64,000 nucleotides of DNA from an uncultured Bacilli bacterium (GCA_947629165.1 CANRCR010000002.1:4845-68844); one strand, 5' to 3'; shown: positions 1 through 35,972, counted from the first letter of the stretch. The notes: generated by a model from the letters alone, not told the origin. Numbers and translations: made by a program.

Positions 1-597
1 TCGGGATTACTAAAAACATTAAACGATCCGAATAAACCACACTACACGACCTTTGGCGAAGACATGACCGTCACGATGAATCCTAACTTCCGTATGATAA
101 GTGCAGGAAACACGAATGGCGAAGGAGAAAATGAAGAGTTTTCAGCCCGTGCGAAACTCGATGAAGCAGTTTTGGAACGTATGACACCGATTCGTTTTAC
201 ATACGATAATCAAGTCGAAAAACGCATCTTTAGAGAATATGACAGTTGGTATCAATTGTTTATCAATTTCCGGAAAGCCTGTGATTCGTGGGCCAAAGTT
301 CAAGGAAAAGACAGTGCTGCTGGAATTGGTACGACAAGAGATGCCGAAGCCATTGCCAAATATATTTCGAACAACAGTAAAAGTGTCGATGAAATAATGC
401 GTCAAAAATTTATTCAGACTAAAGATGTCGATTATTTAAGTCACTTAGAAAGAGAATTCCGTAAGTTTTACGATATTACCGGTTCGATTGGAGAATTGAA
501 AGAGCCGAGCAATCTAGCGGGAGCAAGTGAAAAATATCTCGCGAAGAAATTCATTTTAAACTGTCAAAAAGGAAGAAAACAAGAACAAAGTAGGTGA
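1..597 (+). CDS. AAA_5-type ATPase, C-terminal fragment; gene continues upstream of window. Paralog of the 28135..29922 ATPase.
   Basis: Frame 1 is open from nt 1. The translated stretch ANTNGEG...RAKLDEAVLERMTPIRFTYD aligns with ANTYGTGSD...RSALDGASLNRFVPIFIDYD in the 28135 ATPase (sensor-2-like region). Confidence 0.55.
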   Translation, partial: SGLLKTLNDPNKPHYTTFGEDMTVTMNPNFRMISAGNTNGEGENEEFSARAKLDEAVLERMTPIRFTYDNQVEKRIFREYDSWYQLFINFRKACDSWAKVQGKDSAAGIGTTRDAEAIAKYISNNSKSVDEIMRQKFIQTKDVDYLSHLEREFRKFYDITGSIGELKEPSNLAGASEKYLAKKFILNCQKGRKQEQSR

Positions 598-601
598 GAA
601 G

Positions 602-1555
602 ATGGGCAAATATCCAAATAATCATTTAACGCATGAAGATTGTATTTTTCCTCCGTATCAGATAACGGTAGGAGGTAAAATTTATCAATTGTATTTATCT
701 CGTTTTAATTCCCTTAATGCCCTTTACGAATATCTAAAAAGTGATCCTCCTACTAATCGAATGGCCTTTCATTCTTTAGCGAGTGAAACGAACGATTTTA
801 ATCATTCTGGAAAAAGTTATAGAGAAGCCGTCGAAGATTTAGTCCGTCCTTTCGATGAAGAATATCAAGAATTCTTAAGTATTCAAAAAAAATTAGGAAC
901 CGCTAAATTACAAAAGATTCATAAGTATGAAACTGTAAAAACCGTTACGGGAGGACATTTAATCATTCCGGATTATATCGCTGGAGCACCGCTTTGTTAC
1001 GAGTCGGAAGAACGCATACAAAAAGCCAAATTTGTGAAAGTAAATGCCACTTTATCGTACCACGCCGCAACCACCAAAAAACAGTTATTTAATCGCACAA
1101 TTATCATGGCAAACTTGATTCAAGCCCTCGAAAAAAGTGGATACAATGTCGATTTTAATACTTTTGAATTTAGTCGTCATAGTGATGAACTTTCTTATAC
1201 TATTATAAAAATAAAGAAACATGGTGGAAGAACGAATATGGAAGCACTTTATCAAACTTCTTGTAAAGTTGAATTTTTAAGAAGAATCCTCTTCCGTGTT
1301 TTAGAAACCTTAGATGTCGAGACCTATTGGGGAAGTACTTACGGTTCGGTCTGCTCTCAAGAATTTGTTCGAGAAGCGCTTAAGTTTGATAAAAAAGATA
1401 TCTATTTCGATCAACCTTCGAGTATGGGAATCCAAGGAAACGATTTAATAGGTGACTTTAATCGAGCTATGGAACACCTCCATTTAGATAATATTGTTGA
1501 TATGGAACGTACGCGAGACCAAATCGAAAAAAATTATAAATTATTACAAAAATAA
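602..1555 (+). CDS. Hypothetical protein, partner of the AAA_5 ATPase; paralog of 29931..30830.
   Basis: Starts 5 nt after the ATPase stop. Shares blocks with the 29931 protein: GxPxCxxSxxxxxKxxxV; ANLIQALEKSGYNVDFNTFEF versus LNLIEYLEKQGYHVNLFTYDF; and C-terminal LRRxLFR. Confidence 0.55.
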   Translation: MGKYPNNHLTHEDCIFPPYQITVGGKIYQLYLSRFNSLNALYEYLKSDPPTNRMAFHSLASETNDFNHSGKSYREAVEDLVRPFDEEYQEFLSIQKKLGTAKLQKIHKYETVKTVTGGHLIIPDYIAGAPLCYESEERIQKAKFVKVNATLSYHAATTKKQLFNRTIIMANLIQALEKSGYNVDFNTFEFSRHSDELSYTIIKIKKHGGRTNMEALYQTSCKVEFLRRILFRVLETLDVETYWGSTYGSVCSQEFVREALKFDKKDIYFDQPSSMGIQGNDLIGDFNRAMEHLHLDNIVDMERTRDQIEKNYKLLQK

Positions 1556-1556
1556 A

Positions 1557-1588
1557 ATATCCACAGCTTTTGTGGATATTTTATTTTC
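1557..1588. terminator. Bidirectional intrinsic terminator between convergent genes.
   Basis: Stem ATATCCACA, loop GCTTT, stem TGTGGATAT, flanked by A-run upstream and T-run downstream. Confidence 0.7.
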
Positions 1589-2420
1589 TTTTTTGTTTCA
1601 CTTTTTCTTCTTTTCTTTTTAGATCGATATAAGATTGAATTAAAGATGTATCATTTAAGCAATGAGAATTCACTTTTCGTATTTCTGGGTCGATATCTTC
1701 CGCTTCTTCATACTTTTCACAAAGATCATCGATTAAAAGATGATAATACTTAAAAGGAACATTTTTAGTTTGAGAACTTAATAAAAGAAAGGCCGCTAAA
1801 TTATCCTGAAAATAATGAACATGACTTTCTTCTCTTGTCTTTTTAAAAAGATGTGCTACCCGGTACATAGCATCATAATTGATACAGTAAAAGGCACCTA
1901 ATCCTGGATTTAAAGTTTTTAACATCTCAAAGTCTGATAAACCGATAAGATCATCTTGGATATATTCTCGAAAAGAGGTAATCATCGAAGTTGAAAAATC
2001 AAGGGAATGCGTATGATCAAAATGATACGGTTTTACATAATCTTGAGAGAGAAAGTTAAGTAAATCACAAATCGAATAAAGCGGATCAGTAGAGGTATTA
2101 TTTTTAACAATTTCAATAAAATGAACTAAAACAGGGGAATTTAAATCAAAATGGGCAAGCGATTTCTTTAATAATTCTTGATAAGAGGCCATATTTAAAC
2201 GGTCTATTTCTTGTCTTTTAACACAATCACTGATGGTCACTAAATCGTGTTGAGAAACGGCCAATGAAAAAATAATATTTCTTAGCGACCGATTGTACTG
2301 TGTTTGATAAACAATTTCCCGCAGGATTTTATGATACGGTTCTAAATTCCCAGGAAGTATTTCCTCGGTAGGAATTAGATAAAATAATTCCGGTAAATAT
2401 TTATTACTTAAATAATCCAT
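1581..2420 (-). CDS. Hypothetical protein (279 aa).
   Basis: Long minus-strand ORF convergent with 602..1555; no recognisable motifs. Confidence 0.5.
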   Translation of the reverse strand: MDYLSNKYLPELFYLIPTEEILPGNLEPYHKILREIVYQTQYNRSLRNIIFSLAVSQHDLVTISDCVKRQEIDRLNMASYQELLKKSLAHFDLNSPVLVHFIEIVKNNTSTDPLYSICDLLNFLSQDYVKPYHFDHTHSLDFSTSMITSFREYIQDDLIGLSDFEMLKTLNPGLGAFYCINYDAMYRVAHLFKKTREESHVHYFQDNLAAFLLLSSQTKNVPFKYYHLLIDDLCEKYEEAEDIDPEIRKVNSHCLNDTSLIQSYIDLKRKEEKVKQKRK

Positions 2421-2480: not shown

Positions 2481-3029
2481 ATGAGGAAAAATAAAATGGA
2501 AAAAACAAAGCATCTTAATAAAAAAGAAGAACAAATTAGAAAAAAAACTTATCGTTATCTTCTTAAACAAAACACTCCTGATATCGATCAAAAAATGGCA
2601 TTAATCGATCAATTACTTCATCTAGAAAAAAGAGAACGATACCGTTATCTCTACGACTTAATTTGTGACTATTTTGATCAAGAATTTAAAGAAAAAAATA
2701 TTTGTGCTTTTTCTTGTGGTATTTGTAAAAGAAGACAAAGTATGATTGATCAAGGAACCATCAAAGATACCTATCAAAATGGCTGTTGCTACAGTTACCG
2801 CAAAAAAGAACTTTGTAAATACTATGTTGAAGGAAAAGGATGTGCTATAAAAAATATTGCCTGTAAGGTATATACCTGTCATTATTTAAGAAAAAGAGGT
2901 TATCATTACCATGTGAAAGATCTTTACTTTGCTCGTTATTTTTTTAATAAAAAACAATTTTTCTATATGGAGAACACCTTTTTTCAAGATAAAACAATCG
3001 TTCTAAACGGAATTTTAGAAAGAGAATAA
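2481..3029 (+). CDS. Cys-rich hypothetical protein, possible metal/Fe-S binding (YkgJ-like?).
   Basis: Lys-rich N-terminus; cluster CAFSCGICK...NGCCYSY...CKYY...GCAIKNIACKVYTCHY. Confidence 0.4.
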   Translation: MRKNKMEKTKHLNKKEEQIRKKTYRYLLKQNTPDIDQKMALIDQLLHLEKRERYRYLYDLICDYFDQEFKEKNICAFSCGICKRRQSMIDQGTIKDTYQNGCCYSYRKKELCKYYVEGKGCAIKNIACKVYTCHYLRKRGYHYHVKDLYFARYFFNKKQFFYMENTFFQDKTIVLNGILERE

Positions 3030-3121: not shown

Positions 3122-3643
3122 ATGGATAAAATAATTGGTTACCAAATTGCGCTTACTTCCCATAGTGGATTGTCGGAATCATCTACCATTGCGGAAAAGA
3201 ACCAAGCTTTACTAGATCCTACGAATCAACAAGCCATTATTGTGCAATATGAAAATGGAAAAGAAGGTTATTTTCGCTCGGTTCAAGAATTACAAAAAGC
3301 GTTAAATGATTATACCCAAGAAGATTTTGAACGTTTAAGAGAACATCAACCACTTATTTTAATAATGACCGACGAAGAGACAAAAATACTCGATCAAAAG
3401 AAAGCGATGGGAACGTTAACAGTAAATACACCTATTTTTGAAGAACTTAATACCCTTTCTCCGGCGGCTCGTGTTTTTCAAAGAATGTACGCTTTAATGA
3501 AAGAACAACTAAAGACTCCGCAACCGGTCATTATCGATTATTTAGAACCTGAAGACCAAGATTTTCCAGATTTAAAGAGAGAAGTAAGACGTTATTTTCA
3601 TCCTGGACCACCAAAAAAAGCACTCGATATAGAAGAACTATAA
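3122..3643 (+). CDS. Hypothetical protein (173 aa).
   Basis: ORF with RBS GAAAGGAG upstream, followed by hairpin terminator. Confidence 0.45.
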   Translation: MDKIIGYQIALTSHSGLSESSTIAEKNQALLDPTNQQAIIVQYENGKEGYFRSVQELQKALNDYTQEDFERLREHQPLILIMTDEETKILDQKKAMGTLTVNTPIFEELNTLSPAARVFQRMYALMKEQLKTPQPVIIDYLEPEDQDFPDLKREVRRYFHPGPPKKALDIEEL

Positions 3644-25017: not shown

Positions 25018-26243
25018 GAATTGGAATATTTACCGAGACCTATACCCCTTATATAAGTGGGTTAGTAACCAGTGAATTAATGTTAAAAAATGCTTTGGAA
25101 AAAATGGGACACGAGGTATATGTTGTGACAGCAAATCTCGAAAATTACCATTACGATTACGATGAAGAAGAACACGTTCTAAGGATTCCCGGTGTAAAAA
25201 CAGGTATCTATGATTCTCGTCTTACTTCGATTTATCCCATTCAAGCCATTAACAAAGTAAAAAGTTGGAATTTGGATGTCATCCATTCCCAAACCGAATT
25301 TGCGATTGGAACCTTTGCAAGAATTCTTGCCAAACAGTATCATATTCCGATCGTGCATACTTATCACACGATGTACGAAGACTATGTTCATTACATTACC
25401 AAAGGACATTTCAAGCGTTCCAGTAAAAAGTTAGTCGAATATTTAACTTTGTTCTATTGTGATAAAACGATTACAGAGTTGATTGTACCGACCAAAAAGG
25501 CCTATGACTTGTTTAAGGAAAAATACAATGTAGAACGAAATATTCATATTATTCCTACCGGAATTGAAGTAGAACGCTTTTACAAAGAGAATATCCCTCG
25601 AAAAGAAGTTGTTCGCTTAAAAAAACAATATCAAATTAATTCCGGTGATTATGTCGGAATCTTTGTTGGAAGATTAGCCGAAGAAAAGAATGTCGAGTTC
25701 CTACTTGAAATGATCCACAAAATGTATAAAAAACATCCGAATATGAAACTGTTAATCGTAGGAGATGGCCCGGATAAAGAAAAATACGAATCGATTTCAG
25801 AAAAGAATCATACAGAAAAAAATATCATCTTTACCGGAAAAGTAGCGTGGGAAGAAATACCGGTTTACTATCAGTTAGCCGATTACTTTATCACAGCATC
25901 CAAGACCGAAACACAAGGATTGACCGTAATCGAAGCGATGGCTGCAAGTCTTCCAGCGTTTTGTATTGACGACGAAAGTTTTCACTTAGTGGTAGTCGAT
26001 GGACTCGATGGAATCTTTTTTAACACCATCGAAGAAGCCATCGAAAAAGTCATCGATTTATCGGAACATAAAGATAAACAGAAACAACTTGCAAATCAGG
26101 CTCGAATTAAAGCTGATCGCTACAGTGCTCGTTACTTTGCCGAACAAGTATTAGATGTTTATAAAAGAGCCATTCAAACGAAAGAAAAGAATCAATCGAT
26201 TTTCCAAAAGATGTGGAAAAAAGTGAAAGGGGTGTTTCGATGA
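25014..26243 (+). CDS. GT4-family glycosyltransferase, diacylglycerol glycosyltransferase-like.
   Basis: N-terminus MRIGIFTETYTPYISG; C-terminal GT4 fold with Ex7E-type region (TETQGLTVIEAMAASLPA). ATG at 25014 has RBS GAAAGGAGGA 9 nt upstream. Confidence 0.8.
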   Translation: MRIGIFTETYTPYISGLVTSELMLKNALEKMGHEVYVVTANLENYHYDYDEEEHVLRIPGVKTGIYDSRLTSIYPIQAINKVKSWNLDVIHSQTEFAIGTFARILAKQYHIPIVHTYHTMYEDYVHYITKGHFKRSSKKLVEYLTLFYCDKTITELIVPTKKAYDLFKEKYNVERNIHIIPTGIEVERFYKENIPRKEVVRLKKQYQINSGDYVGIFVGRLAEEKNVEFLLEMIHKMYKKHPNMKLLIVGDGPDKEKYESISEKNHTEKNIIFTGKVAWEEIPVYYQLADYFITASKTETQGLTVIEAMAASLPAFCIDDESFHLVVVDGLDGIFFNTIEEAIEKVIDLSEHKDKQKQLANQARIKADRYSARYFAEQVLDVYKRAIQTKEKNQSIFQKMWKKVKGVFR

Positions 26244-26959
26244 AATTATTAGTAGCCAATCACAAGATGAATTTGACCAAAGAAGAAATCACCGCTTATC
26301 TAGATAAAATGCGAAACCATCTACCCGAAAAAGCCGAAGTAGTATTTTGTCCCTCTTTTCCCTATCTCGATTTATTTAAACGAGAAGGATATCAGATCGG
26401 AAGTCAAAATGTTGGCCTCATCGAAAAAGGTAGCCTGACGGGAGAAGTGAGTGCAAGTCAATTACGTAGTGTTGGCGTAACCTATGGAATTGTAGGTCAC
26501 TCTGAACGAAGACAAAAACTGAATGAGACGGACGAAATGATTCGCACCAAAATAGAATTACTCGAAAAAGAATCCATCACACCCATTCTCTGTATTGGAG
26601 AAACTTTAGAAGAACATCTTAATGGAAAGACTAACGAAGTACTCGAACGACAATTGAGTGAAGATTTAAAAAATCATTCCGAAGAAACACTTTCAAAAGT
26701 CGTTATTGCCTATGAACCAATTTGGGCAATCGGTACTGGAAAAATTCCTTCGAATGAAGAGATTTATCAGACAGTAGAGTTTATTCGTTCCGTATTGCAA
26801 AAACACTTCCATCAAACGACAAAAATATTATACGGGGGAAGTATTAATCAAGAGAATATTATAACTTTAGAAACAATCGAAAATCTCGATGGCTATCTCG
26901 TTGGAGGAGCGAGCCTTCATCCAGAAACATGGATATCATTAATAGACCATTTAAGGTAG
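26240..26959 (+). CDS. tpiA: Triosephosphate isomerase.
   Basis: N-terminus KLLVANHKMN; catalytic regions (GHSERR, AYEPIWAIGTG). ATG at 26240 overlaps the GT4 stop (ATGA). Confidence 0.9.
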   Translation: MKLLVANHKMNLTKEEITAYLDKMRNHLPEKAEVVFCPSFPYLDLFKREGYQIGSQNVGLIEKGSLTGEVSASQLRSVGVTYGIVGHSERRQKLNETDEMIRTKIELLEKESITPILCIGETLEEHLNGKTNEVLERQLSEDLKNHSEETLSKVVIAYEPIWAIGTGKIPSNEEIYQTVEFIRSVLQKHFHQTTKILYGGSINQENIITLETIENLDGYLVGGASLHPETWISLIDHLR

Positions 26960-26968
26960 GTGAAAGAT

Positions 26969-27130
26969 ATGATTTTAGATTTTATGGAAGACCTAAATCG
27001 CGAATGGAACCATCTTCAATACTGGTTTGAACAACATTACGATGATCCCCTTCTTTGGACTGGAATTGTAGTAGCAGTTGTTCTATTTATGGCCATTTGT
27101 GCTTCTTATTTAGGAAAAGATAACAAATAA
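26969..27130 (+). CDS. Small membrane protein, 53 aa (not in supplied ORF track, which omits ORFs below 60 aa).
   Basis: ATG with strong RBS AGGTAGGTGAAAG. One TM helix GIVVAVVLFMAICASYL; followed directly by an intrinsic terminator. Confidence 0.4.
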   Translation: MILDFMEDLNREWNHLQYWFEQHYDDPLLWTGIVVAVVLFMAICASYLGKDNK

Positions 27131-27159
27131 AGAAAGAATTGAACCGCTTTCTTTTTTTT
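27129..27159 (+). terminator. Intrinsic terminator ending the gap-pgk-tpiA region.
   Basis: AAAGAAAG ... CTTTCTTT stem followed by TTTTTTG. Confidence 0.7.
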
Positions 27160-27191
27160 GCTATAATAAAAAAATTGAAAGAAGGGATAAG

Positions 27192-28007
27192 ATGGCCTCT
27201 TTTGTAATCCATCACATCGTAGGAGAAAATTTCCTAACATTATTAGATAAAAAATTAGAAATTACTTTAAATCCTATCGAACAAAAACAATTTTTATTAG
27301 GAAACCTAGTGGTTGATTCAACACGTATCTCAAAAGAAATACCAGATAATTTAGATTCCTTTGAAAAACAACAATTAAAAAGAAAAATTGCTTTGGCAAT
27401 TCAAGAAGAAAAAATAAAGACACACTTTCGGAATCCGAACACGGTAGATCAAACGATTCAAGCACCGATTCCAAATCGATTTATTCATAAGTACTACGAT
27501 CTTTTTGATCATAATCCTGCAGTACTAGGATATCTCGTTCATCTTTATACCGATAAATACTTTTTTGATGATCTTTTTAGAGCGACCTTTGAAATGGTCG
27601 ATCGGAATAATAACCCAGTAATATACGATCGGGAGGTCGATCACATTCATATATATAAAACCGGTGAAAATCAGTCACCAAAAAAGTTTTGGAGTGACCG
27701 AGGGATGTATCGGGATTATACCCTTATGAATCATTATTTACTTGACTGCTTCCATACGAAGTTTGATGAGCAAGATCTAATGAAAGCAACTACTTACTTT
27801 CATAATCCTGGAATCGAAGAAGTAGATTTTGAAAACATTGGCCAAGTACTTCATGAAACTGCTTCCTATATACAAGAAAGCAATCAAATGAAAGATGCCA
27901 AACTCCGTATCTTTGATGAAGAAAAGATTCGATCTTTCGTTCCGACCGTATTAAGTCAATTTGTAGATTTATATCCAGATTTAATAGAGAAGACCTTAAT
28001 AAGATAA
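27192..28007 (+). CDS. Hypothetical His-rich protein, possible metal-dependent hydrolase.
   Basis: N-terminus MASFVIHHIVGE; several HxxH/D motifs; 271 aa. Confidence 0.4.
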   Translation: MASFVIHHIVGENFLTLLDKKLEITLNPIEQKQFLLGNLVVDSTRISKEIPDNLDSFEKQQLKRKIALAIQEEKIKTHFRNPNTVDQTIQAPIPNRFIHKYYDLFDHNPAVLGYLVHLYTDKYFFDDLFRATFEMVDRNNNPVIYDREVDHIHIYKTGENQSPKKFWSDRGMYRDYTLMNHYLLDCFHTKFDEQDLMKATTYFHNPGIEEVDFENIGQVLHETASYIQESNQMKDAKLRIFDEEKIRSFVPTVLSQFVDLYPDLIEKTLIR

Positions 28008-28019
28008 GGTCTTTTTTTT
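27991..28019 (+). terminator. Intrinsic terminator.
   Basis: AGACCTTA ATAAGA TAAGGTCT followed by TTTTTTTT. Confidence 0.7.
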
Positions 28020-28065
28020 AAAATAATTGACAAAAAAAGAGATTATTATAAAATAATAAAATATC

Positions 28066-28094
28066 TTGACAAGAGAAGACTTATAGTATAAAAT
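28066..28094 (+). promoter_or_regulatory. Sigma-A-type promoter of the ATPase operon.
   Basis: TTGACA (28066-28071), 17 nt spacer, TAAAAT (28089-28094), about 40 nt upstream of the ATG at 28135. Confidence 0.55.
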
Positions 28095-28134
28095 ACTATT
28101 TGTTTGGTAAGAGCATAGAAAGAAGGGAACGGTC

Positions 28135-29922
28135 ATGAATAATACCATCGTTCGAGATTTCTTCAAAAATGCGATTGAAGAATGTAAAAAGAGTGTTATT
28201 TGTAAAATTCCTTACTCGAAGACGAATCCCATTATTGAAATTCAAGAAGAAGCTTTTTATGATTGGGAAAGTTGTGAATATGTAGTAATTCCTCCAACCG
28301 TACATAAAATTGCTCCGAATGCTTTTCATTGGGACAAGATAAAACTTATTATTTCGGAAACACCACTTCCAAAAGAATATAAAGGAATCGTGCTTCCTTA
28401 TTCCGAATACAGTCAAGCAATTTTAAATATGTTACAACAAATGGAAACAGTAGATCGTAAGATCGACATCCATAGTGAAGATTTAAATCGAAGAAGAGAA
28501 GAGATAAATAATCATATTAATGAAATACTTCAAGCCATGGCCGAAAAAGAACAAGACCTAACTGGAAAAGAACAAGATTTACAAGAATTAGTTCAAAAAT
28601 TAAATGTGGTTCTAGAACAGAGTCAAGGACTTTCGGATACGTTATTAAATCAAATTGAAAAAGAGACGAGTGATCGAATTCAAACAACTTTAAAAGTATT
28701 AGATGAGCACGATCAAAAAGTAAAGGATCAAATAAAAACCATCGAAATGACTGCTCGTCAAGGAACTGCTTCGATGGAAGAAGCTTATCACCAAGCCCAA
28801 AAAGGAATTGAACACTTAACGGATGAGACCATTCGCCGGGTTACCAAAACAATACAAGAAAAACAACGCGAAGCCAAAGAGATAAAACAAAAACTTTCCG
28901 ATATGCTCGATCAATTAAGTGTCCGTGAAGAGGAACTTACCGAAGCCGTTGTCGATCGTGCTGTAGACCGAGTTCGGGAAGAAAATCCTTATAAAAATAT
29001 CAATATATATATCAATAACGTTATTCAAGGAACGGCCCATCGTAAACTAGTTCATAAAAGTTTCGAAAGCGTTGTAAAAATTTTGGGACTTCATCTTCAT
29101 CCTTTGTTAGTAGGACCCGCTGGATGTGGTAAAAACGTTATGCTCGAACAAGCTTCGGAAGCTTTAGGACTCAAGTTCCATTACGTAAACGACGTTACCG
29201 AAGAACATAAGGTAATGGGTTTCGTAGATGCAAATGGAAAATTTCAGAAAACACAGTTCTTTCAAGCTTTCACCGAAGGTGGACTCATGATGATTGATGA
29301 AATTGATAACTCGCATCCTTCGGCATTATTAGCTATAAATGCAGCTTTAGGAACCGGTTTCAACCAATATTTAGCATTCCCGGATGGTAAACTTTATCCA
29401 TGTCATAAAGACTTCTATTGTGCGGCTGCTGCAAACACGTACGGAACGGGATCCGATATGATTTACTGTGGAAGAAGTGCTTTGGATGGAGCAAGTCTTA
29501 ACCGGTTCGTTCCTATTTTTATCGACTACGACAGAGACTTAGAAGAACACCTCGTTCGTAATACCAAGATTTTACCCCTTTACTGGCAAGTAAGATCATC
29601 GATTCAAAAAAATAAGATTCGACACGTTATTTCTACTCGTAACATCGTTAATGCTGACAAAATGATATCGAGTGATAATTTTAGTACGGGCCAAATCTTT
29701 GATATGACAATTATTCAAAGTTTAACAGACGACGATTTAAGAATCATCTTAAATGATATTGTAAAAGGACCAAGTGACCCTGTTATATCGAGTTTTATCA
29801 ACTATCTTCAAACGAACAAAGGAATTTCTTATAAGGAGTATAGCGAAAATAATTACAGTCAAGGAAGACAAAAAACATATTCTTCTGGCTATGGTTACTC
29901 TCCTTATTCGGAAGATTATTAG
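28135..29922 (+). CDS. AAA_5-family ATPase with N-terminal BspA-type LRR unit and ~200-aa coiled coil.
   Basis: Walker A LVGPAGCGKN; Walker B LMMIDEID; sensor-2-like RSALDGASLNRF. N-terminus IEIQEEAFYDWESCEYVVIPPTVHKIAPNAFH matches the LRR_5 repeat consensus. Residues ~95-290 are heptad-rich. Confidence 0.8.
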   Translation: MNNTIVRDFFKNAIEECKKSVICKIPYSKTNPIIEIQEEAFYDWESCEYVVIPPTVHKIAPNAFHWDKIKLIISETPLPKEYKGIVLPYSEYSQAILNMLQQMETVDRKIDIHSEDLNRRREEINNHINEILQAMAEKEQDLTGKEQDLQELVQKLNVVLEQSQGLSDTLLNQIEKETSDRIQTTLKVLDEHDQKVKDQIKTIEMTARQGTASMEEAYHQAQKGIEHLTDETIRRVTKTIQEKQREAKEIKQKLSDMLDQLSVREEELTEAVVDRAVDRVREENPYKNINIYINNVIQGTAHRKLVHKSFESVVKILGLHLHPLLVGPAGCGKNVMLEQASEALGLKFHYVNDVTEEHKVMGFVDANGKFQKTQFFQAFTEGGLMMIDEIDNSHPSALLAINAALGTGFNQYLAFPDGKLYPCHKDFYCAAAANTYGTGSDMIYCGRSALDGASLNRFVPIFIDYDRDLEEHLVRNTKILPLYWQVRSSIQKNKIRHVISTRNIVNADKMISSDNFSTGQIFDMTIIQSLTDDDLRIILNDIVKGPSDPVISSFINYLQTNKGISYKEYSENNYSQGRQKTYSSGYGYSPYSEDY

Positions 29923-29930
29923 GTGATATC

Positions 29931-30830
29931 ATGTATCAAGATGTAGAAAGATATCGTTACAAGGACGACTTAGTTTATGTCAAAAAATTTCAAAATTTAG
30001 ACCAATTTTTAGTAGAAGTAAGAGATAATCGTAATCTAAATCCCATCTTTCAATCGGAACAAAGTACGAACGGAGATGCTTCTTTTACCGAAACAAAGAC
30101 GTACGAAGAAGCTTGGAACTTATGTCGTTTTACCATGAACCAAGGCTTTGACCGATTTTATCAAAAGTTTTGTTCCCTCAATTATAAGATGGATTATCAA
30201 GAGAAAAAAATCGATATATTTAATGTGACCGGGTATGTTCCAAATGTACCGCGTTACTTATTAGGAATTCCTACTTGTATGCATAGTTACCGATTAGAAA
30301 AGAAAGAGGAAACCGTCAGTATTTATATGAATATGGCCTATTCTTGCTATCAAAACAAAGAACAGATTGAAAATCGTGGTATCCTAGTACTCAATTTGAT
30401 CGAATATTTAGAGAAACAAGGATATCATGTCAATCTTTTCACTTACGACTTTGGTACCTGTGACAACGAAAAAATATTGATGATTGTTCCGCTTAAAACG
30501 AAAGATGAAAAGTTAAACATTAAAAAGACGTATTTTCCACTTGTACATCCATCGTTTTTACGAAGACTTCTATTTCGAGCTCAAGAAAAAATGCCGGTAC
30601 AAAGAAAAATGTGGGCATATGGATATGGATCTCCAGTAGAATATGAGGAAGCAGTCAAGTTCTTTGATCAATATCATCGTGAATTTGATAAAGAAAAAGT
30701 CATCTATATTTCGACCCCTAACGAAATGGGAATTAAAGGACAAAACCTCGAAGAAGATTTCGACCATTTCTTAGAAACGATTAATCGAAATTATCAAAGC
30801 CATGAAAAAGCAAAACAAAAAATTAAGTAA
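29931..30830 (+). CDS. Hypothetical protein, partner of the AAA_5 ATPase; paralog of 602..1555.
   Basis: Begins 9 nt after the ATPase stop; sequence blocks shared with the 602..1555 product. Confidence 0.55.
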   Translation: MYQDVERYRYKDDLVYVKKFQNLDQFLVEVRDNRNLNPIFQSEQSTNGDASFTETKTYEEAWNLCRFTMNQGFDRFYQKFCSLNYKMDYQEKKIDIFNVTGYVPNVPRYLLGIPTCMHSYRLEKKEETVSIYMNMAYSCYQNKEQIENRGILVLNLIEYLEKQGYHVNLFTYDFGTCDNEKILMIVPLKTKDEKLNIKKTYFPLVHPSFLRRLLFRAQEKMPVQRKMWAYGYGSPVEYEEAVKFFDQYHREFDKEKVIYISTPNEMGIKGQNLEEDFDHFLETINRNYQSHEKAKQKIK

Positions 30831-30846
30831 AAAAGGAGAAATTGAT

Positions 30847-31764
30847 ATGGAATCAGGAAATATTTGGGGTTCACTTGAAAATACTACCCCATCTGTAATG
30901 GTAGAAAATCGAAAAACACTTTCCGTTAATAACTTGCGCATCTATTTAGCGATGACTCCCACCCAAGAAATAAATAAAGATACATTCTTCGATTACTTTC
31001 GTGAAAATAGTCTAGAAAAGCCTTTAGAGGGAACCGAATACTATTTACCACACGCCCTCTTTCATTATCCGATCGAAGATGAAAAAATACTAGCCATAAT
31101 GGACTTCTTGTTTGAATATACTTCTCCCTATGTATTGACGGAAAAAACCGGAATGAACTATTTACAAAGTATTTTTACAAGACCGGAAGCGCTCGAGGAA
31201 GAAACGATTAAAACGATATTAAAACAAGCGAGCGAAGTAAAAGCAGACTTTAATCATCGCGATAACGAATGGAATACCGTCCTACACTGGGCACTAGTAG
31301 GAAATGGTTACAGTGATAGTATTGATAAATTGTATCCGTATTTTCCTAAAGATTTCTATGTCGCAACAGGACCTCATCAGAATGACTGTGCGATCAATTC
31401 GTTCAATCGGGAAGGAATTACCGTTTATGATTTAGCCAAAATTATTCTAGCTCGGGTAAGTATAACCTTCGAAAATCACGCCAATTTTGATTATTACAGC
31501 AAAGATTGGAGAAGAGTATACGAATCCTATACCGATGGTTATAAATGGGCAAGAGAACCGAATCGCCAAGGAAGATTATTAAATAGTTATTTTAGTCATA
31601 CGATCGGATATAGTCTACGGCATTTAGGAACCGATTCAATGATTTCATTTGACCGTTACCATAATAAAACATATGACATTTGTTTAAGTGATTTTGCACC
31701 CGTATTTCAAACGAGAAAATTAAAAAAGTTAGGTACTTATCACACGCCTGAAACAAAAGAATAG
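30847..31764 (+). CDS. Hypothetical protein, possibly ankyrin-repeat-like; third gene of the operon.
   Basis: ATG at 30847 preceded by RBS AAAAGGAGAA. Segment NTVLHWALVGNGYSDSIDKLY resembles an ANK repeat. Confidence 0.45.
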   Translation: MESGNIWGSLENTTPSVMVENRKTLSVNNLRIYLAMTPTQEINKDTFFDYFRENSLEKPLEGTEYYLPHALFHYPIEDEKILAIMDFLFEYTSPYVLTEKTGMNYLQSIFTRPEALEEETIKTILKQASEVKADFNHRDNEWNTVLHWALVGNGYSDSIDKLYPYFPKDFYVATGPHQNDCAINSFNREGITVYDLAKIILARVSITFENHANFDYYSKDWRRVYESYTDGYKWAREPNRQGRLLNSYFSHTIGYSLRHLGTDSMISFDRYHNKTYDICLSDFAPVFQTRKLKKLGTYHTPETKE

Positions 31765-31789
31765 AAACCGAGAAAGGTTTCTTTTTTTA
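31765..31789 (+). terminator. Intrinsic terminator closing the three-gene operon.
   Basis: GAAACC GAGAAA GGTTTC followed by TTTTTTT. Confidence 0.7.
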
Positions 31790-31825
31790 CGTCAAGTTAA
31801 AAGAAAAAGACGAAATTCGCGAACG

Positions 31826-31891
31826 TTCGACAGAACTTGACAAAACTAGCTAATATCCGCTGTTTCTTTTTGTATTTATTTCGTGTATAAT
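31826..31891 (+). promoter_or_regulatory. spo0A upstream region: candidate 0A box plus promoter elements.
   Basis: TTCGACA at 31826-31832 (reverse complement TGTCGAA, the Spo0A box consensus); TTGACA at 31837-31842; extended -10 TGTATAAT ending at 31891. Confidence 0.4.
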
Positions 31892-31924
31892 GATAATTGC
31901 GTGGTAGTAAGAAAGGAAGAATAT

Positions 31925-32704
31925 ATGAATAAAATAAGACTACTCATGATTGATGATAACGTCGAACTTGTAAAGATGACGGAGGAGTACTTTAAGAATC
32001 ACGCTACAATTGAAATTGCTTTATCGGCAAACAATGGCGAAGATGGACTTAAAATGATCGAAGAAAAACAAGCGGAATACGATGTGCTAGTACTCGACTT
32101 AGTAATGCCCAAAAAAGATGGAATTTCCGTATTAGAAGAAATGCGAAGAAAAGGAATTGATAAGAAAACAATTGTCTTAACCTCGTACAATGCTCCTGAA
32201 ATGATCCGTAAGGTTTCGGAATTAGGAGCCAGTTACTTTATCTTAAAACCATTTGAATTAACGGAATTTGAAAGTAAAATAATCGATTGCACCAGTGCCA
32301 AAGACTATAAACGAAAAGCAATTGATATCTATCATAACAATCTGCAAATATCGATTACGAAAATTCTCCATGAATTAGGAGTACCTTCGCATATTAAAGG
32401 ATATCAGTATATCAGGGAAGGAATCATCATCCTCTACGAACACCCAGAGATTGTAGGCGGTATTACCAAAGAACTATATCCCGATATTGCGAAAAAGTTT
32501 GATACGACCGTATCCCGTGTAGAAAGAGCAATTCGTCATGCCATCGAAGTGAGTTGGAATCGCGGTAATTGGCAATTGATGGAAGAAATCTTTGGTCACA
32601 GTGTCGATATTGATAAAGCCAAACCAACCAATTCAGAATTCGTAGTTACCGTAGCAGATAAATTAAGATTGGAATTTCATAAACAGGGCGCATTTCAAGA
32701 CTAG
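31925..32704 (+). CDS. spo0A: Sporulation master regulator Spo0A.
   Basis: Receiver domain (LLMIDDN ... [10 protein letters not shown] ... K) and Spo0A-specific C-terminal domain ([32 protein letters not shown]). ATG at 31925 with RBS AGAAAGGAAG. Confidence 0.9.
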
Positions 32705-32777
32705 CAGTAATGGTCTTTTTTGTTGGCAAAAAAAGATTTCTATGATATAGTTAAGTTAGTAGTAGGGAGGAATTGGT

Positions 32778-33077
32778 ATGGAACCAAAGAAAAGAATATG
32801 TTATGACCGAAAAGTAGCAAATATAAAATCACAACTAAATAATTTAAAACAGGAGGTAATCGATGCCTTGTATTTAATTGATTCGACGAAAGAGGAAAAA
32901 GATACCGTAGAATTGATGCAAAGCGATGATTACGAACTATTATGTGATCTTTATTTTCGTCTTCCTGGAACGAGACCAACTCCATCACAAGAAGTAAAAG
33001 AAGAAAAAAAGGAAGAAGTAGCCAAACAAAAGGTATTAGGGTTTGGGAAACCGAAAACGATTCTACCGAAGGAATAA
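32778..33077 (+). CDS. Small hypothetical protein (99 aa).
   Basis: Strong RBS GGGAGGAATTGGT before ATG; preferred over the overlapping minus-strand ORF 32740..33126, which lacks an RBS. Confidence 0.4.
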   Translation: MEPKKRICYDRKVANIKSQLNNLKQEVIDALYLIDSTKEEKDTVELMQSDDYELLCDLYFRLPGTRPTPSQEVKEEKKEEVAKQKVLGFGKPKTILPKE

Positions 33078-33194
33078 TCCTTCTTTTTTTTGTCGAAAAA
33101 AGGGAAGTTTTATAACTTTTGGACAATATATTGACTATTATTTTTCGTTGTATTATACTTTAACTATAGTAAAATTGTTGGGAGGTAACGATTT

Positions 33195-34469
33195 ATGGAA
33201 CGAAAAATAATGAATGACTTACTTCGCTGGAAACGAGATGATAACCGTCGCCCATTACTCCTTTATGGAAATAAACAAGTAGGGAAAACCTATACGGTGC
33301 TTGAGTTTGGAGCGAAGGAATATAAATCTTGTGCTTACTTTAACTGTGAAAATAATTTAGAGCTACTAGAAATGCTCAAAAAAGAAAGTAGTATCGATAA
33401 AATAATTTTAAAACTATCAATGCTATCGGGAGAACAGATATTAAAACAAGATAGTCTTTTAGTGTTCGATAACGTCGAAGATATCGAAGTAGTTCGCATG
33501 GTAAAGAGAATCGGTAAAGAACAAAATGCCTATCATGTAATTATGATTACGTCTTCCAAAGATAATCTCAACCAGTTCAAGTCGGAAGAACTTCAATTTA
33601 AATACATGTTTGCCCTCGATTTTGAAGAATACTTAAAAGCCATTAAACAGGAGCAACTCATCGATTTTATTAAAGATTCTTACAAAAATAATAAACCGAT
33701 GCCATTCCATAATATAGCGCTCGATTATTATGAGAACTATATGATGACGGGAGGTTTTCCTGAAGCCGTGGCCACTTCACTTACGAGTGATCAACCACAA
33801 GCTTTAGCTATGGTTCACCAAAAGATTCTAGATTTATACCCAAAAGAGTTTATGCGCCAAGAACAACTAATCGATATGACCAGAGCGTTAGAAGTATTTC
33901 GAATAGTACCTTATCAACTAGTGAAACCCAATAAAAAATTTCAATACGGATTAATGCGTATGGGAAGTCGTGCCAAAGAATACTTTCAAGCCATTGACTT
34001 TTTAAGTAATAATAGTTACCTAAATCGTTGTTATAAGATTACGGAAGTAAAAGCGCCATTGAGTAAAAATAAAGATCCTGAGAGTTTTAAACTCTATGCA
34101 CCGGATACGGGACTTCTTTTTCACATGTTACATTTAAGTAAAATTCGTTACCTTGGAGATAATCGCTTTAAATATATTATCTATGAAAACGCACTTGCGA
34201 GCAGTATTTTAGCGGGAGGCTACAGCTTATATTATTATCAATCGGAAGGGAAAGCCGAAATTTCCTTTGTAGTACAAACTCGTGCTGGAAAAATTATTCC
34301 GATCGAGCTAGTTAATAAAAATGTTGCAAAGGCAAAATCACTAACCTTATTTATGAATAAATTCGATATTCACGAAGCAATTCGTGTTACCGAAGATAAT
34401 TTTAGTATGAAAAAAGGAGTAAAATATATTCCAATTTATGCAACGTTCTGTTTAAAAGACAATTTGTAG
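33195..34469 (+). CDS. AAA_14/DUF4143-family ATPase (COG1373-like).
   Basis: Walker A LLLYGNKQVGKTY near N-terminus; ~420 aa with a C-terminal DUF4143-like region. Confidence 0.65.
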   Translation: MERKIMNDLLRWKRDDNRRPLLLYGNKQVGKTYTVLEFGAKEYKSCAYFNCENNLELLEMLKKESSIDKIILKLSMLSGEQILKQDSLLVFDNVEDIEVVRMVKRIGKEQNAYHVIMITSSKDNLNQFKSEELQFKYMFALDFEEYLKAIKQEQLIDFIKDSYKNNKPMPFHNIALDYYENYMMTGGFPEAVATSLTSDQPQALAMVHQKILDLYPKEFMRQEQLIDMTRALEVFRIVPYQLVKPNKKFQYGLMRMGSRAKEYFQAIDFLSNNSYLNRCYKITEVKAPLSKNKDPESFKLYAPDTGLLFHMLHLSKIRYLGDNRFKYIIYENALASSILAGGYSLYYYQSEGKAEISFVVQTRAGKIIPIELVNKNVAKAKSLTLFMNKFDIHEAIRVTEDNFSMKKGVKYIPIYATFCLKDNL

Positions 34470-34478
34470 GAGGATAAA

Positions 34479-35972
34479 ATGAAACCGTTAGTATTATGTA
34501 TTTTAGATGGATGTGGAATTCGCGAAAGTGAATATGGGAATGCTTTTTTACAAGCTAATAAACCGAATTACGATGCCCTTTTAAGGGAGTTTCCAAACTG
34601 TAAACTAGAAGCCAGTGGTCAAGCGGTAGGACTTCCGAAAGGACAGATGGGAAACAGTGAAGTAGGCCATATGAATATGGGAGCAGGAAGAATTGTTTAT
34701 CAACCACTCGAACTCATCAATAAAAGTATTTTAGAAAAAGACTTCTTTGAAAATGAACATCTAAAGAAAGTTATTCGTCATACCAAAGAGAATCACTCGA
34801 AGCTTCATGTGATGGGCTTGATAAGTGATGGAGGAGTGCATTCGCATATCGACCATTTGATGGCTGTCCTCGATCTTTGTGAAAAAGAAGGAGTCGAAGA
34901 CTTATATCTTCACTTGTTTACCGATGGAAGAGATGTACAACCGACGACTTCTTATTCCTATATTGCCCAAGTGGAAGACAAATTAAAAGCGATCAACCGT
35001 GGTAAGATTGCTTCTATTTCAGGAAGATATTATGCAATGGACCGTGATAATAACTACGACCGCCTATTAAAAGCGTACGATGTAATCGTAAACGATAAAG
35101 GAGAAAAACAACCTTCGATTAAAGACTTTATCGATCAAAGTTATGCGCAAGGAATTACCGATGAATTTTTACTTCCAACGAAGTTCGTCGACGGTGGAAA
35201 TGTCACTGAAAACGATGGTATTATTGTCTTCAATTACCGAAGAGATCGCTTACGTGAATTATTTACGGCAATCACGAACCCAGAATTTAATGAGATGCCG
35301 GTCACTAAATTCCAAAATGTGAAAGTAGTAACGATGTTACCGGTGGTTGAATCCGTCAAAGCGGACCATGCTTATGACAATCCAGATTTAAAGAATTTAC
35401 TTGGAGAGTACCTTGCCAAAGAAGGAAAGTCACAACTTCGAATTGCTGAAACGGAAAAATATGCACATGTTACTTTTTTCTTTGATGGAGGAAAAGAAGA
35501 AGATTATCCAAACGAAAAGAAAATCTTAATTCCATCTCCGAAAGTTGCTACCTACGATTTAAAACCATCGATGAGTTGTAACGAAGTAACGGATGCTCTT
35601 TTAAAAGAACTCGAAAACTTCGATGTCGTTATTTTAAACTTTGCAAATGGTGACATGTTAGGACATACAGGAGTATTAGAAGCGGCTAAATCAGCTATCG
35701 AAACTGTCGACGGTAATCTAGGAAGAATTTACGAAAAAGTAAAAGCCCTAGGAGGTGTCATGTTAATTACAGCCGATCATGGTAACTGTGAAGAAATGCT
35801 CGATGCGGACGGAAACGTTTTAACTTCACATACCACGAATTTAGTACGCATGATTATAACGAAGGAAAATCTTACCTTGCACGATGGTAAATTAGCGGAT
35901 ATTGCGCCAACAATGTTAAAACTTTTAGAACTTGAACAACCGAAAGAAATGACAGGAGTTCCATTATTTTAA
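34479..35972 (+). CDS. gpmI: 2,3-bisphosphoglycerate-independent phosphoglycerate mutase.
   Basis: N-terminus LCILDGCG; NSEVGHMNMGAGRIVYQ; C-terminal metal-binding DHGN motif; 497 aa. Confidence 0.95.
   Translation: MKPLVLCILDGCGIRESEYGNAFLQANKPNYDALLREFPNCKLEASGQAVGLPKGQMGNSEVGHMNMGAGRIVYQPLELINKSILEKDFFENEHLKKVIRHTKENHSKLHVMGLISDGGVHSHIDHLMAVLDLCEKEGVEDLYLHLFTDGRDVQPTTSYSYIAQVEDKLKAINRGKIASISGRYYAMDRDNNYDRLLKAYDVIVNDKGEKQPSIKDFIDQSYAQGITDEFLLPTKFVDGGNVTENDGIIVFNYRRDRLRELFTAITNPEFNEMPVTKFQNVKVVTMLPVVESVKADHAYDNPDLKNLLGEYLAKEGKSQLRIAETEKYAHVTFFFDGGKEEDYPNEKKILIPSPKVATYDLKPSMSCNEVTDALLKELENFDVVILNFANGDMLGHTGVLEAAKSAIETVDGNLGRIYEKVKALGGVMLITADHGNCEEMLDADGNVLTSHTTNLVRMIITKENLTLHDGKLADIAPTMLKLLELEQPKEMTGVPLF

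Follow-up and report, generated by a model that had tools for sequence, protein, structure and literature searches.

What do the three co-directional genes that lie between tpiA and spo0A in an uncultured Bacilli bacterium encode? The genes, here called g1, g2 and g3, are part of a 64,000-nucleotide (nt) stretch of its DNA (GCA_947629165.1 CANRCR010000002.1:4845-68844), which we refer to as the window and from whose first letter all positions are counted. An initial annotation, made from the sequence alone, had portrayed them as a self-contained operon in which an AAA_5 ATPase bearing leucine-rich repeats (LRRs) and a coiled coil, a partner with no recognisable fold and an ankyrin-like protein make up an undescribed system, possibly one of defence or remodelling. 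We find that g2 is a member of Pfam family DUF7192 whose predicted structure resembles the von Willebrand factor A (vWA) domains of MoxR-class ATPase systems, that the metal-dependent adhesion site (MIDAS) is missing from it, and that g1 and g2 form a pair conserved across phages and chromosomes. On balance, the two proteins are probably the components of an obligate, ATP-driven remodelling machine of the MoxR-vWA type.

The identity of the partner carries most of this argument. The 299-residue product of g2 matches DUF7192 (PF23822) at 8.8e-32, with 111 bits against a gathering score of 27, and PHROG 1909 at 2.4e-39; no paper mentioning DUF7192 was found in the literature searched. An AlphaFold model based on 47 homologues, with a predicted local distance difference test (pLDDT) score of 83.8 and a predicted template modelling (pTM) score of 0.81, was compared with known structures in three independent fold searches, which agree on a vWA-like fold and point to the AAA+-coupled vWA domains of Midasin (its MIDAS domain) and NorD. 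In the PDB, the first five Foldseek places all go to NorD chains of NorQ-NorD complexes (E 1e-4 to 9e-3, probability 0.98-1.0), and in BFVD 12 phage DUF7192 proteins come first, followed by phage proteins named 'von Willebrand factor', 'CobT-like' or 'cobalt chelatase CobT' (E 4e-6 to 2e-3). Template modelling (TM) scores outside DUF7192 are low, at 0.3-0.4, and the vWA assignment, which derives from a model, is best taken as one of fold level and not of demonstrated homology. The partner is thus not the protein without recognisable fold that had been described, and because its fold is vWA-like we regard the system as a variant of the MoxR-vWA/cobST theme and not as a new architecture.

Conservation within the family indicates where this vWA-like domain departs from its relatives. 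P114, R211, R212, E219, Y232 and G233 of g2 are invariant, none of the invariant or nearly invariant columns (47-49 sequences) contains an Asp, Ser or Thr, and the loop after beta-1 reads AYSCYQ. Lacking conserved residues of these three kinds, g2 has no DxSxS...T...D MIDAS site, as the initial annotation had suspected. It had also noted the lack of a McrC signature, and Pfam and PADLOC searches of g2 returned neither a McrC nor a PD-(D/E)xK signature. A further conserved segment, residues 89-123, contains the motif G101...VPRYLxGIPxNM (G101, L110, P114 and M117) and is modelled with low pLDDT.

The 595-residue ATPase, g1, passes the Pfam AAA_5 threshold (E 4.5e-9, 36.9 bits against a gathering score of 22) and, through residues 195-544, matches PHROG 249 (1.6e-53), a phage family named 'CobS / porphyrin biosynthesis'; its match to CbbQ_C is below the Pfam threshold. 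When a g1 family profile was compared with the PDB (60 matches listed of 217), Midasin/Rea1 matched at 3.8e-55 through five AAA modules, CobS at 1.3e-15, CbbQ at 4.3e-15 and NorQ at 4.5e-11, whereas for classical AAA proteins, p97 among them, the match was limited to the surroundings of the Walker region. Across 22 aligned and diverse members of the family, the Walker A motif (G-P-A-G-x-G-K; GPAGCGKN at residues 327-334 of g1), Walker B (D388/E389), sensor 1 (N434/T435), two arginines (R447 and R457) and sensor 2 (S500/R502) are invariant, and the helix-2-insert region (~362-376) is strongly conserved. From these motifs, g1 is predicted to be an AAA_5 ATPase with its catalytic machinery intact. 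The Walker A lysine is followed by Asn (GKN; 29113-29136) in most family members, those of Kayvirus included, and a minority have GKS or GKT.

Besides the AAA_5 core, the initial annotation had placed an LRR unit and a coiled coil in g1. The LRR_5 unit, to which the first ~70 residues give a weak match, falls below threshold in the window protein (17.5-21.5 bits against 27.7; E 2.3e-4 when the N-terminus is searched alone), and among full-length homologues, which give E 4.7e-7 to 2e-5 and 24.8-30.2 bits, one exceeds the gathering score; the unit is presumed to bind a target or an adaptor. Residues ~95-290 are rich in Glu, Gln, Leu and Lys, with only five Pro plus Gly, and match nothing but coiled coils, those of SMC, JetC, ZorA, LmuB and Rad50 (PADLOC, NCBIfam). 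A crude heptad score did not discriminate this helical arm, so that 'coiled coil' here describes composition and cross-hits only. The full-length architecture is common to more than 80 clusters at ~44% identity. We also note that the tails of these long-form ATPases are probably disordered, end in an acidic-aromatic stretch (...PYSEDY; ...FPFDDF in L008, 7900-7992) and are absent from phage forms; the Ser/Tyr-rich tail may be a docking motif.

The name of PHROG 249 raises the question of whether g1 and g2 are a true chelatase-type CobS/CobT motor, which would place a metal in a tetrapyrrole or an enzyme (cf. CobSTN, BchID and NorQD). Staphylococcus hosts of Kayvirus, whose members carry the pair, are not known to synthesise cobalamin aerobically, and this we count against such a role. 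CobS is the second-best match of the g1 profile, behind Midasin, among the PDB matches listed, but an NCBIfam scan gave no CobS or CobT model at E <= 1; outside DUF7192 the fold of g2 comes closest to CobT-like phage proteins, but g2 is half the size of CobT and MIDAS-less. Viral cobST genes have been proposed to hijack the CobN of the host (PMC8651126), and neither a CobN nor a ChlH gene is present in any neighbourhood scanned. We consider a chelatase function very unlikely. The candidate identification of g1 and g2 as CobS and CobT themselves was rejected on the missing NCBIfam CobS match, the missing MIDAS and the lack of a CobN-like neighbour; of the CobS labels, g1 takes just the broad one of PHROG 249.

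That g2 is a dedicated partner, as first proposed, is borne out by co-occurrence. A scan of one genome per species gave 49 loci with a g2 relative, at 47 of which a g1-family ATPase adjoins it; only one locus, L025, has room on both sides and no ATPase. Among 56 IMG/VR contigs with a g2 relative the ATPase is adjacent in 50, in the order g2 then g1 in 49 of these, and five of the remaining six end at most about 800 bp after g2, on the side where such contigs hold the ATPase. In GenBank, 290 phage records match g2 and 417 match the ATPase, with the same 236 Staphylococcus phage records (Kayvirus included) found by both searches. Direct inspection of genomes showed the pair in Kayvirus GH15 (ORF047 and ORF046), Clostridium phage CS266P3, Listeria phage P100 and mycobacteriophage LeBron, and in Gordonia phage Octobien14 a 281-residue protein, not itself scanned against Pfam, adjoins the ATPase. 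The literature searched contained nothing usable on the function of the Kayvirus or Listeria-phage ATPase.

The duplication reported earlier for this genome is also present: a second, paralogous pair opens the window, its DUF7192 protein 31% identical to g2 and scoring 67 bits against the family. Given the linkage across phages and chromosomes, together with this second pair, we conclude that the two-gene pair is the conserved unit and is common to both. The three-gene system of the initial annotation holds in one chromosomal clade; elsewhere the universal unit is the pair. Beside the second pair there is no g3-like gene, and downstream of it lie uncharacterised open reading frames (ORFs) at 1581-2420 (-), 2481-3029 and 3122-3643, followed by uvrB.

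The arrangement of the pair varies among loci. Phage-type loci (L001, L033, L041, L043 and L046, and IMG/VR L057-L112) have the reversed order, DUF7192 then ATPase, and in the first five of these a RuvC-like resolvase gene lies just upstream; the ATPase comes first in Herelleviridae, actinophages and chromosomal loci. Two tandem DUF7192 genes follow one ATPase in L020 and L042, two ATPase genes precede one DUF7192 gene in L022, and two complete pairs stand in tandem in L031. In L051 (262-3336), from a proteobacterial metagenome-assembled genome (MAG), a single 1024-residue ORF contains AAA_5 (768-900) and then a DUF7192 fragment (934-1010), and could be a fusion or a frameshifted pair.

The abundance of the family in phages (PHROG 249 and 1909, 290-417 phage records, 56 IMG/VR contigs) would also be expected if the operon were a non-functional or selfish remnant of a cobST-like prophage segment with no role in the host. 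This we judge quite unlikely: the ORFs are intact and all ATPase motifs conserved, the operon comes with a promoter, ribosome-binding sites and a terminator of its own, and it occupies the same chromosomal position in related MAGs between flanks that are 79-90% identical. No phage genes lie nearby, the long form (LRR unit, helical arm and g3) does not occur in the viral contigs examined, and full-length homologues make up more than 80 clusters.

How might the pair work? In cryo-electron microscopy structures of NorQD, the vWA protein inserts a finger into the pore of the ATPase ring, where it touches the helix-2 inserts; on hydrolysis of ATP the vWA domain turns, a linker is stretched and the client is remodelled, a mechanism that the authors propose to be general (PMC13036017, PMC9976466). 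By analogy, g1 would form a ring, presumably hexameric, on which one copy of g2 would dock as the structural equivalent of CobT, NorD and the MIDAS domain of Midasin, its metal site lost. Segment ~89-123 of g2 would enter the pore and meet the conserved helix-2 insert of g1, and ATP hydrolysis would twist or pull g2 and thereby exert force on a bound client protein. With the MIDAS site gone, a client would have to be bound elsewhere on the machine. One candidate is the invariant RR...E / GYG patch of g2, and in the chromosomal clade the LRR_5 unit and helical N-terminal arm of g1 and the ankyrin-like g3 may provide additional ones. The window version would then be a chromosomally fixed, elaborated form of a pair that many tailed phages carry.

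Several observations weigh against a machine of this kind. A Pfam scan of g2 gives no vWA or CobT match, and the family profile finds nothing among PDB sequences at E <= 10. The MIDAS, missing here, is the client-binding site in NorD, CbbO and Rea1, and in its absence the NorQ-NorD analogy may fail at the functional step. The Walker A motif has Asn in place of Ser/Thr, a substitution that bears on an ATPase activity predicted from motifs, and structure prediction for g3, from three sequences, reached a pLDDT of 45. The initial annotation had named assignment of the partner to a known MoxR-associated vWA family with a housekeeping chaperone role as a finding that would count against an undescribed system. 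Half of this is borne out: the fold does put the partner in the MoxR-associated vWA class, though it points to no established family whose housekeeping role is known.

The third gene distinguishes the chromosomal clade. The ankyrin-like segments reported for g3 (305 residues) reappear as a weak but reproducible signal. A word-seeded search found two homologues only, and an exhaustive phmmer search of 1.84 billion representatives gave 19 matches, of which ~12 are true relatives; the other seven are multi-repeat proteins aligned to residues 111-167, and all six of those that were scanned are ankyrin-repeat proteins. Ank_4 scores 14.9 bits, below its threshold of 22.7, and the g3 family profile weakly matches ankyrin structures, engineered ones and Notch (E 5e-4 to 0.06). 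Two ORF clusters, c4 and c5, proved to be one g3 family (hhalign 98.8%, E 5e-17), which stands directly beside the pair in the window and at 16 other loci (L003-L013, L015, L018, L027 and L047), often in two copies and either up- or downstream. All loci with g3 carry ATPases of 518-606 residues. None of g3, the LRR unit and the helical arm was found in the viral contigs examined, where a single-protein scan with g1 gave no match and the sequences in the g3 alignment diverged too far to serve as the seed of another. We conclude that g3 is a small, fast-evolving, ankyrin-like family confined to the chromosomal clade with the long ATPase.

Comparison with L003, the nearest MAG relative of the window, separates the parts of the system by rate. 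The locus has the same chromosomal position in L003-L005, and the putative adaptors diverge much faster than the motor (Table 1). A possible, though doubtful, extension of the remodelling machine is that AAA_5 plus DUF7192 is a distinct, uncharacterised class of MIDAS-less vWA/AAA+ machine that has been re-equipped with adaptors, to serve either as a sensor-motor in conflict and immunity or as a domesticated phage motor. In that case the chromosomal clade would have gained fast-evolving LRR, helical-arm and ankyrin adaptors on a core shared by gut Bacillota and tailed phages, among them the therapeutic Kayvirus and P100-like phages. The conflict branch would imply a new sensor-motor that lacks a canonical effector, and the domesticated motor one that remodels a large host complex, like a split prokaryotic Midasin.

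The same divergence is the main attraction of the defence role that had been proposed, in which the LRR and ankyrin parts would sense an invader and the AAA_5 motor would trigger a toxic response. Modules of the LRR_5 and ankyrin types typically act as sensors, g3 and the helical arm are 37-41% identical between the window and L003 where the motor is 77% identical, g3 is often tandem-duplicated, the pair is present twice in one genome, and the combination of coiled coil and AAA_5 recalls CoCoNuT/McrBC (PMC11090510). However, PADLOC 2.0 returned coiled-coil cross-hits only for g1 and no match for g2 or g3, so that none of the three proteins has a specific match, and no effector domain (nuclease, protease, TIR, pore or other) was found in them with Pfam or NCBIfam. 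A scan of 150 neighbouring proteins, three genes on each side of the pair at ~40 loci, gave sporadic matches to defence models, none matched by more than two proteins; the proteins matching GajB/UvrD-helicase are probably housekeeping helicases of the AddA type, and Pfam shows a diverse housekeeping set (TIM, FTHFS, tRNA synthetase, ExoVII, MutS, FolD, GlmS). The locus is also syntenic, with host-like base composition, in related MAGs, the core pair is kept in lytic phages, and McrB is not among the 60 matches listed of 217 for the g1 profile. Membership of a known defence system was discarded on the PADLOC result and the neighbour scan. With no PADLOC match, no effector, housekeeping neighbours and a core pair conserved in virulent phages, we find no support for defence; the conflict reading, which we think unlikely, stays alive because the LRR and ankyrin parts are fast-evolving and duplicated.

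The layout of the operon is largely as the initial annotation had drawn it, with ORFs, hairpins and consensus matches confirming three co-directional genes, a terminator on either side and a promoter of their own, between a glycolytic gene and spo0A. The gaps, given as 9 and 17 nt, are by our count 8 nt (g1/g2) and 16 nt (g2/g3). The reported TTGACA-17-TAAAAT promoter is present, and a second one precedes it; promoter-like sites in the region are no more numerous than in shuffled sequence, and both promoters stand as consensus matches only. The upstream terminator hairpin, which overlaps the stop codon of orf271, folds at -13.5 kcal/mol (z -4.1), as well as which 0/200 shuffles folded. AGGTGA precedes the ATG of g2, and AAGGAGA lies 7 nt 5' of the g3 ATG at 30847. 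A longer g3 start at 30802 is possible; because of the AAGGAGA, and because an independent gene call on a metagenomic contig (96% identical) has the same length of 305 residues, 30847 is the best start. The GC content of the operon (0.33-0.36) is that of the window (0.348), and a Rfam scan of 26000-34600 matched no RNA family.

Table 1. Features of the locus, with coordinates in the window and percentage identity between the window and L003.
Feature	Coordinates	Strand	Basis or remark	Identity to L003 (%)
Second, paralogous pair	1-1555	+	AAA_5 ATPase C-terminal part 1-597 (cut by window edge) and DUF7192 protein 602-1555	
tpiA	26213-26959		Upstream flank	
orf271	27192-28007	+	271-residue protein; own transcription unit; possible associate of the pair	
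Upstream intrinsic terminator	27987-28021	+	Perfect 12-bp hairpin 27987-28016 and U-run; ends orf271 transcript	
Promoter 1, sigma-70-like	28027-28054	+	TTGACA-16-TAAAAT, 11/12 matches	
Promoter 2, sigma-70-like	28066-28094	+	TTGACA-17-TAAAAT, 11/12 matches	
g1, long-form AAA_5 (MoxR/CobS/Midasin-class) ATPase	28135-29922	+	Pfam, PHROGs, motif alignment	
g1 N-terminus				62
g1 N-terminal LRR_5-like unit, ~2 BspA-type repeats	28135-28404	+	Pfam LRR_5, below threshold in window protein	
g1 helical, coiled-coil-like linker or arm (residues ~91-290)	28405-29004	+	Composition and coiled-coil cross-hits; fast-evolving	37
g1 AAA+ module	29032-29769	+	Motifs given in text	77
g1 Ser/Tyr-rich C-terminal tail ending EDY	29770-29919	+	Long-form clade only	
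g2, DUF7192, short MIDAS-less vWA-like partner	29931-30830	+	Pfam, PHROG, AlphaFold model, fold search	68
g2 segment 89-123, candidate pore-inserting 'finger'	30195-30299	+	Conserved, low model confidence; NorD analogy	
g2 signature HPSFLRRLxFRxxE ... GYG	30549-30629	+	Invariant R211, R212, E219, Y232, G233	
g3, clade-specific third subunit	30847-31764	+	N-terminal ~170 residues conserved, C-terminal half variable	41 and 38 (two copies)
g3 ankyrin-like repeat region (residues ~111-167)	31177-31347	+	Family profile and phmmer	
Downstream intrinsic terminator	31759-31790	+	Hairpin 31759-31786 and U-run, -9.6 kcal/mol, z -2.7	
spo0A	31883-32704		Downstream flank; TIGR02875, 3e-82	90
AAA_14 ATPase				84
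Glycosyltransferase				79

Beyond spo0A lie an AAA_14/DUF4143 ATPase and then gpmI. The genes tpiA and gpmI usually adjoin in Firmicute glycolytic operons; between them in the window (26213-35972) stands a 7.5-kb block of orf271, the operon, spo0A, a 99-residue ORF and the AAA_14/DUF4143 ATPase, and in L031 gpmI is close to a pair. The tpiA genes of the window and of L003 (2849-3583) are only 51% identical, in contrast with the 79-90% of the flanking housekeeping genes, which suggests, from the sequences compared, that tpiA may have been replaced or may be changing faster at the edge of a variable block.

The proximity of spo0A recurs in two separate lineages, one comprising the window and L003-L005, where it is directly downstream, and the other L032, L034 and L037, where it is a few genes off. 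A remodeller linked to sporulation through spo0A would account for this, yet a terminator divides the operon from spo0A, so that each is a transcription unit by itself, spo0A is missing from the vicinity of ~40 other loci, and the pair occurs in phages of non-sporulating hosts; we hold such a link to be highly improbable.

Upstream of the operon, orf271 belongs to a family in which H7, D42, H78, H117 and D121 are invariant and which resembles a metal-dependent hydrolase; it has no Pfam relative, and a profile search of the PDB found none either. It lies within a few kb of the pair, in varying positions, at eight loci (the window, L003, L005, L008, L009, L011, L012 and L027), and in related Bacilli MAGs it is accompanied by a divergent LysR regulator and a calcineurin-like metallophosphoesterase.

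What is new here is the vWA fold assignment for a DUF widespread in phages and bacteria, with the twist that the MIDAS is missing, and both parts are testable. The function of DUF7192 is undescribed, yet the family is paired with an ATPase in 236/236 of the Staphylococcus phage records matched, and the pair is found as well in P100-like phages of Listeria, mycobacteriophages and numerous gut Firmicutes. Reading g2 as a MIDAS-less vWA protein places these genes within the MoxR-vWA framework, for which a structural model is now available in NorQD, and offers concrete targets for mutagenesis in the helix-2 insert, in segment 89-123 and in the RR...E / GYG patch. If the model is right, the metal-dependent adhesion site, which is thought to be the client-binding element of the MoxR-vWA class, would be dispensable here, and given its loss client capture would differ from that of every characterised member. 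The 'porphyrin biosynthesis' label on the phage ATPase is corrected at the same time. The value of these results is mainly in generating hypotheses, and no function follows yet from the fold assignment.

Among characterised systems, the locus compares with the MoxR-class ATPases and their vWA partners, which include RavA-ViaA, CbbQ-CbbO, NorQ-NorD and CobS-CobT and, in cis, Midasin. The closest is the viral cobS-cobT cluster, which comprises a CobS-like AAA+ ATPase and a CobT-like vWA protein in tailed phages and archaeal viruses (PMC8651126). It has the same adjacent layout of AAA_5 ATPase and partner, g1 falls in the same PHROG 249, and the phage CobT-like and vWA proteins of BFVD are the nearest fold relatives of g2 outside DUF7192. 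However, the viral partner has 600-800 residues, whereas g2 has ~300 and lacks the MIDAS, a Pfam vWA or CobT match and the CobT N-domain; g1 has no CobS equivalog match, and the window form adds the LRR_5 unit, the helical arm and the ankyrin-like gene. NorQ-NorD and CbbQ-CbbO come next, together with Midasin. Both NorD and CbbO are large, with N-domains specific to the client and a MIDAS that functions, in contrast with the short, MIDAS-less g2; the N-terminal extension is here on the ATPase and not on the vWA protein, and the genes for the clients of those systems (cNOR and Rubisco) lie close by, whereas this locus has no linked client gene. Midasin/Rea1, which acts in eukaryotic ribosome assembly, consists of one 5000-residue chain in which six AAA modules are fused and a genuine MIDAS binds UBL domains, while the ring here would be assembled from identical subunits, and the vWA-like domain, MIDAS-less, is a protein of its own.

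McrBC and CoCoNuT also combine an AAA_5-class NTPase with a partner, one that inserts into the pore as is proposed for g2, and CoCoNuT McrB homologues have long coiled coils, but g2 differs in its vWA-like fold and has no McrC or PD-(D/E)xK signature; a McrBC/CoCoNuT-like restriction system was rejected on that fold, on the lack of a McrC or nuclease signature and on the failure of McrB to appear as a top match of g1. The ternary vWA-MoxR-VMAP conflict systems (PMC7159879) are defined by VMAP as third component and by effector domains; g3 shows no effector domain, and bpMoxR was matched only below threshold, in homologues. The locus belongs with AAA_5 plus DUF7192, and not with CobS/CobT proper, the MIDAS-bearing vWA families, McrBC or any PADLOC system.

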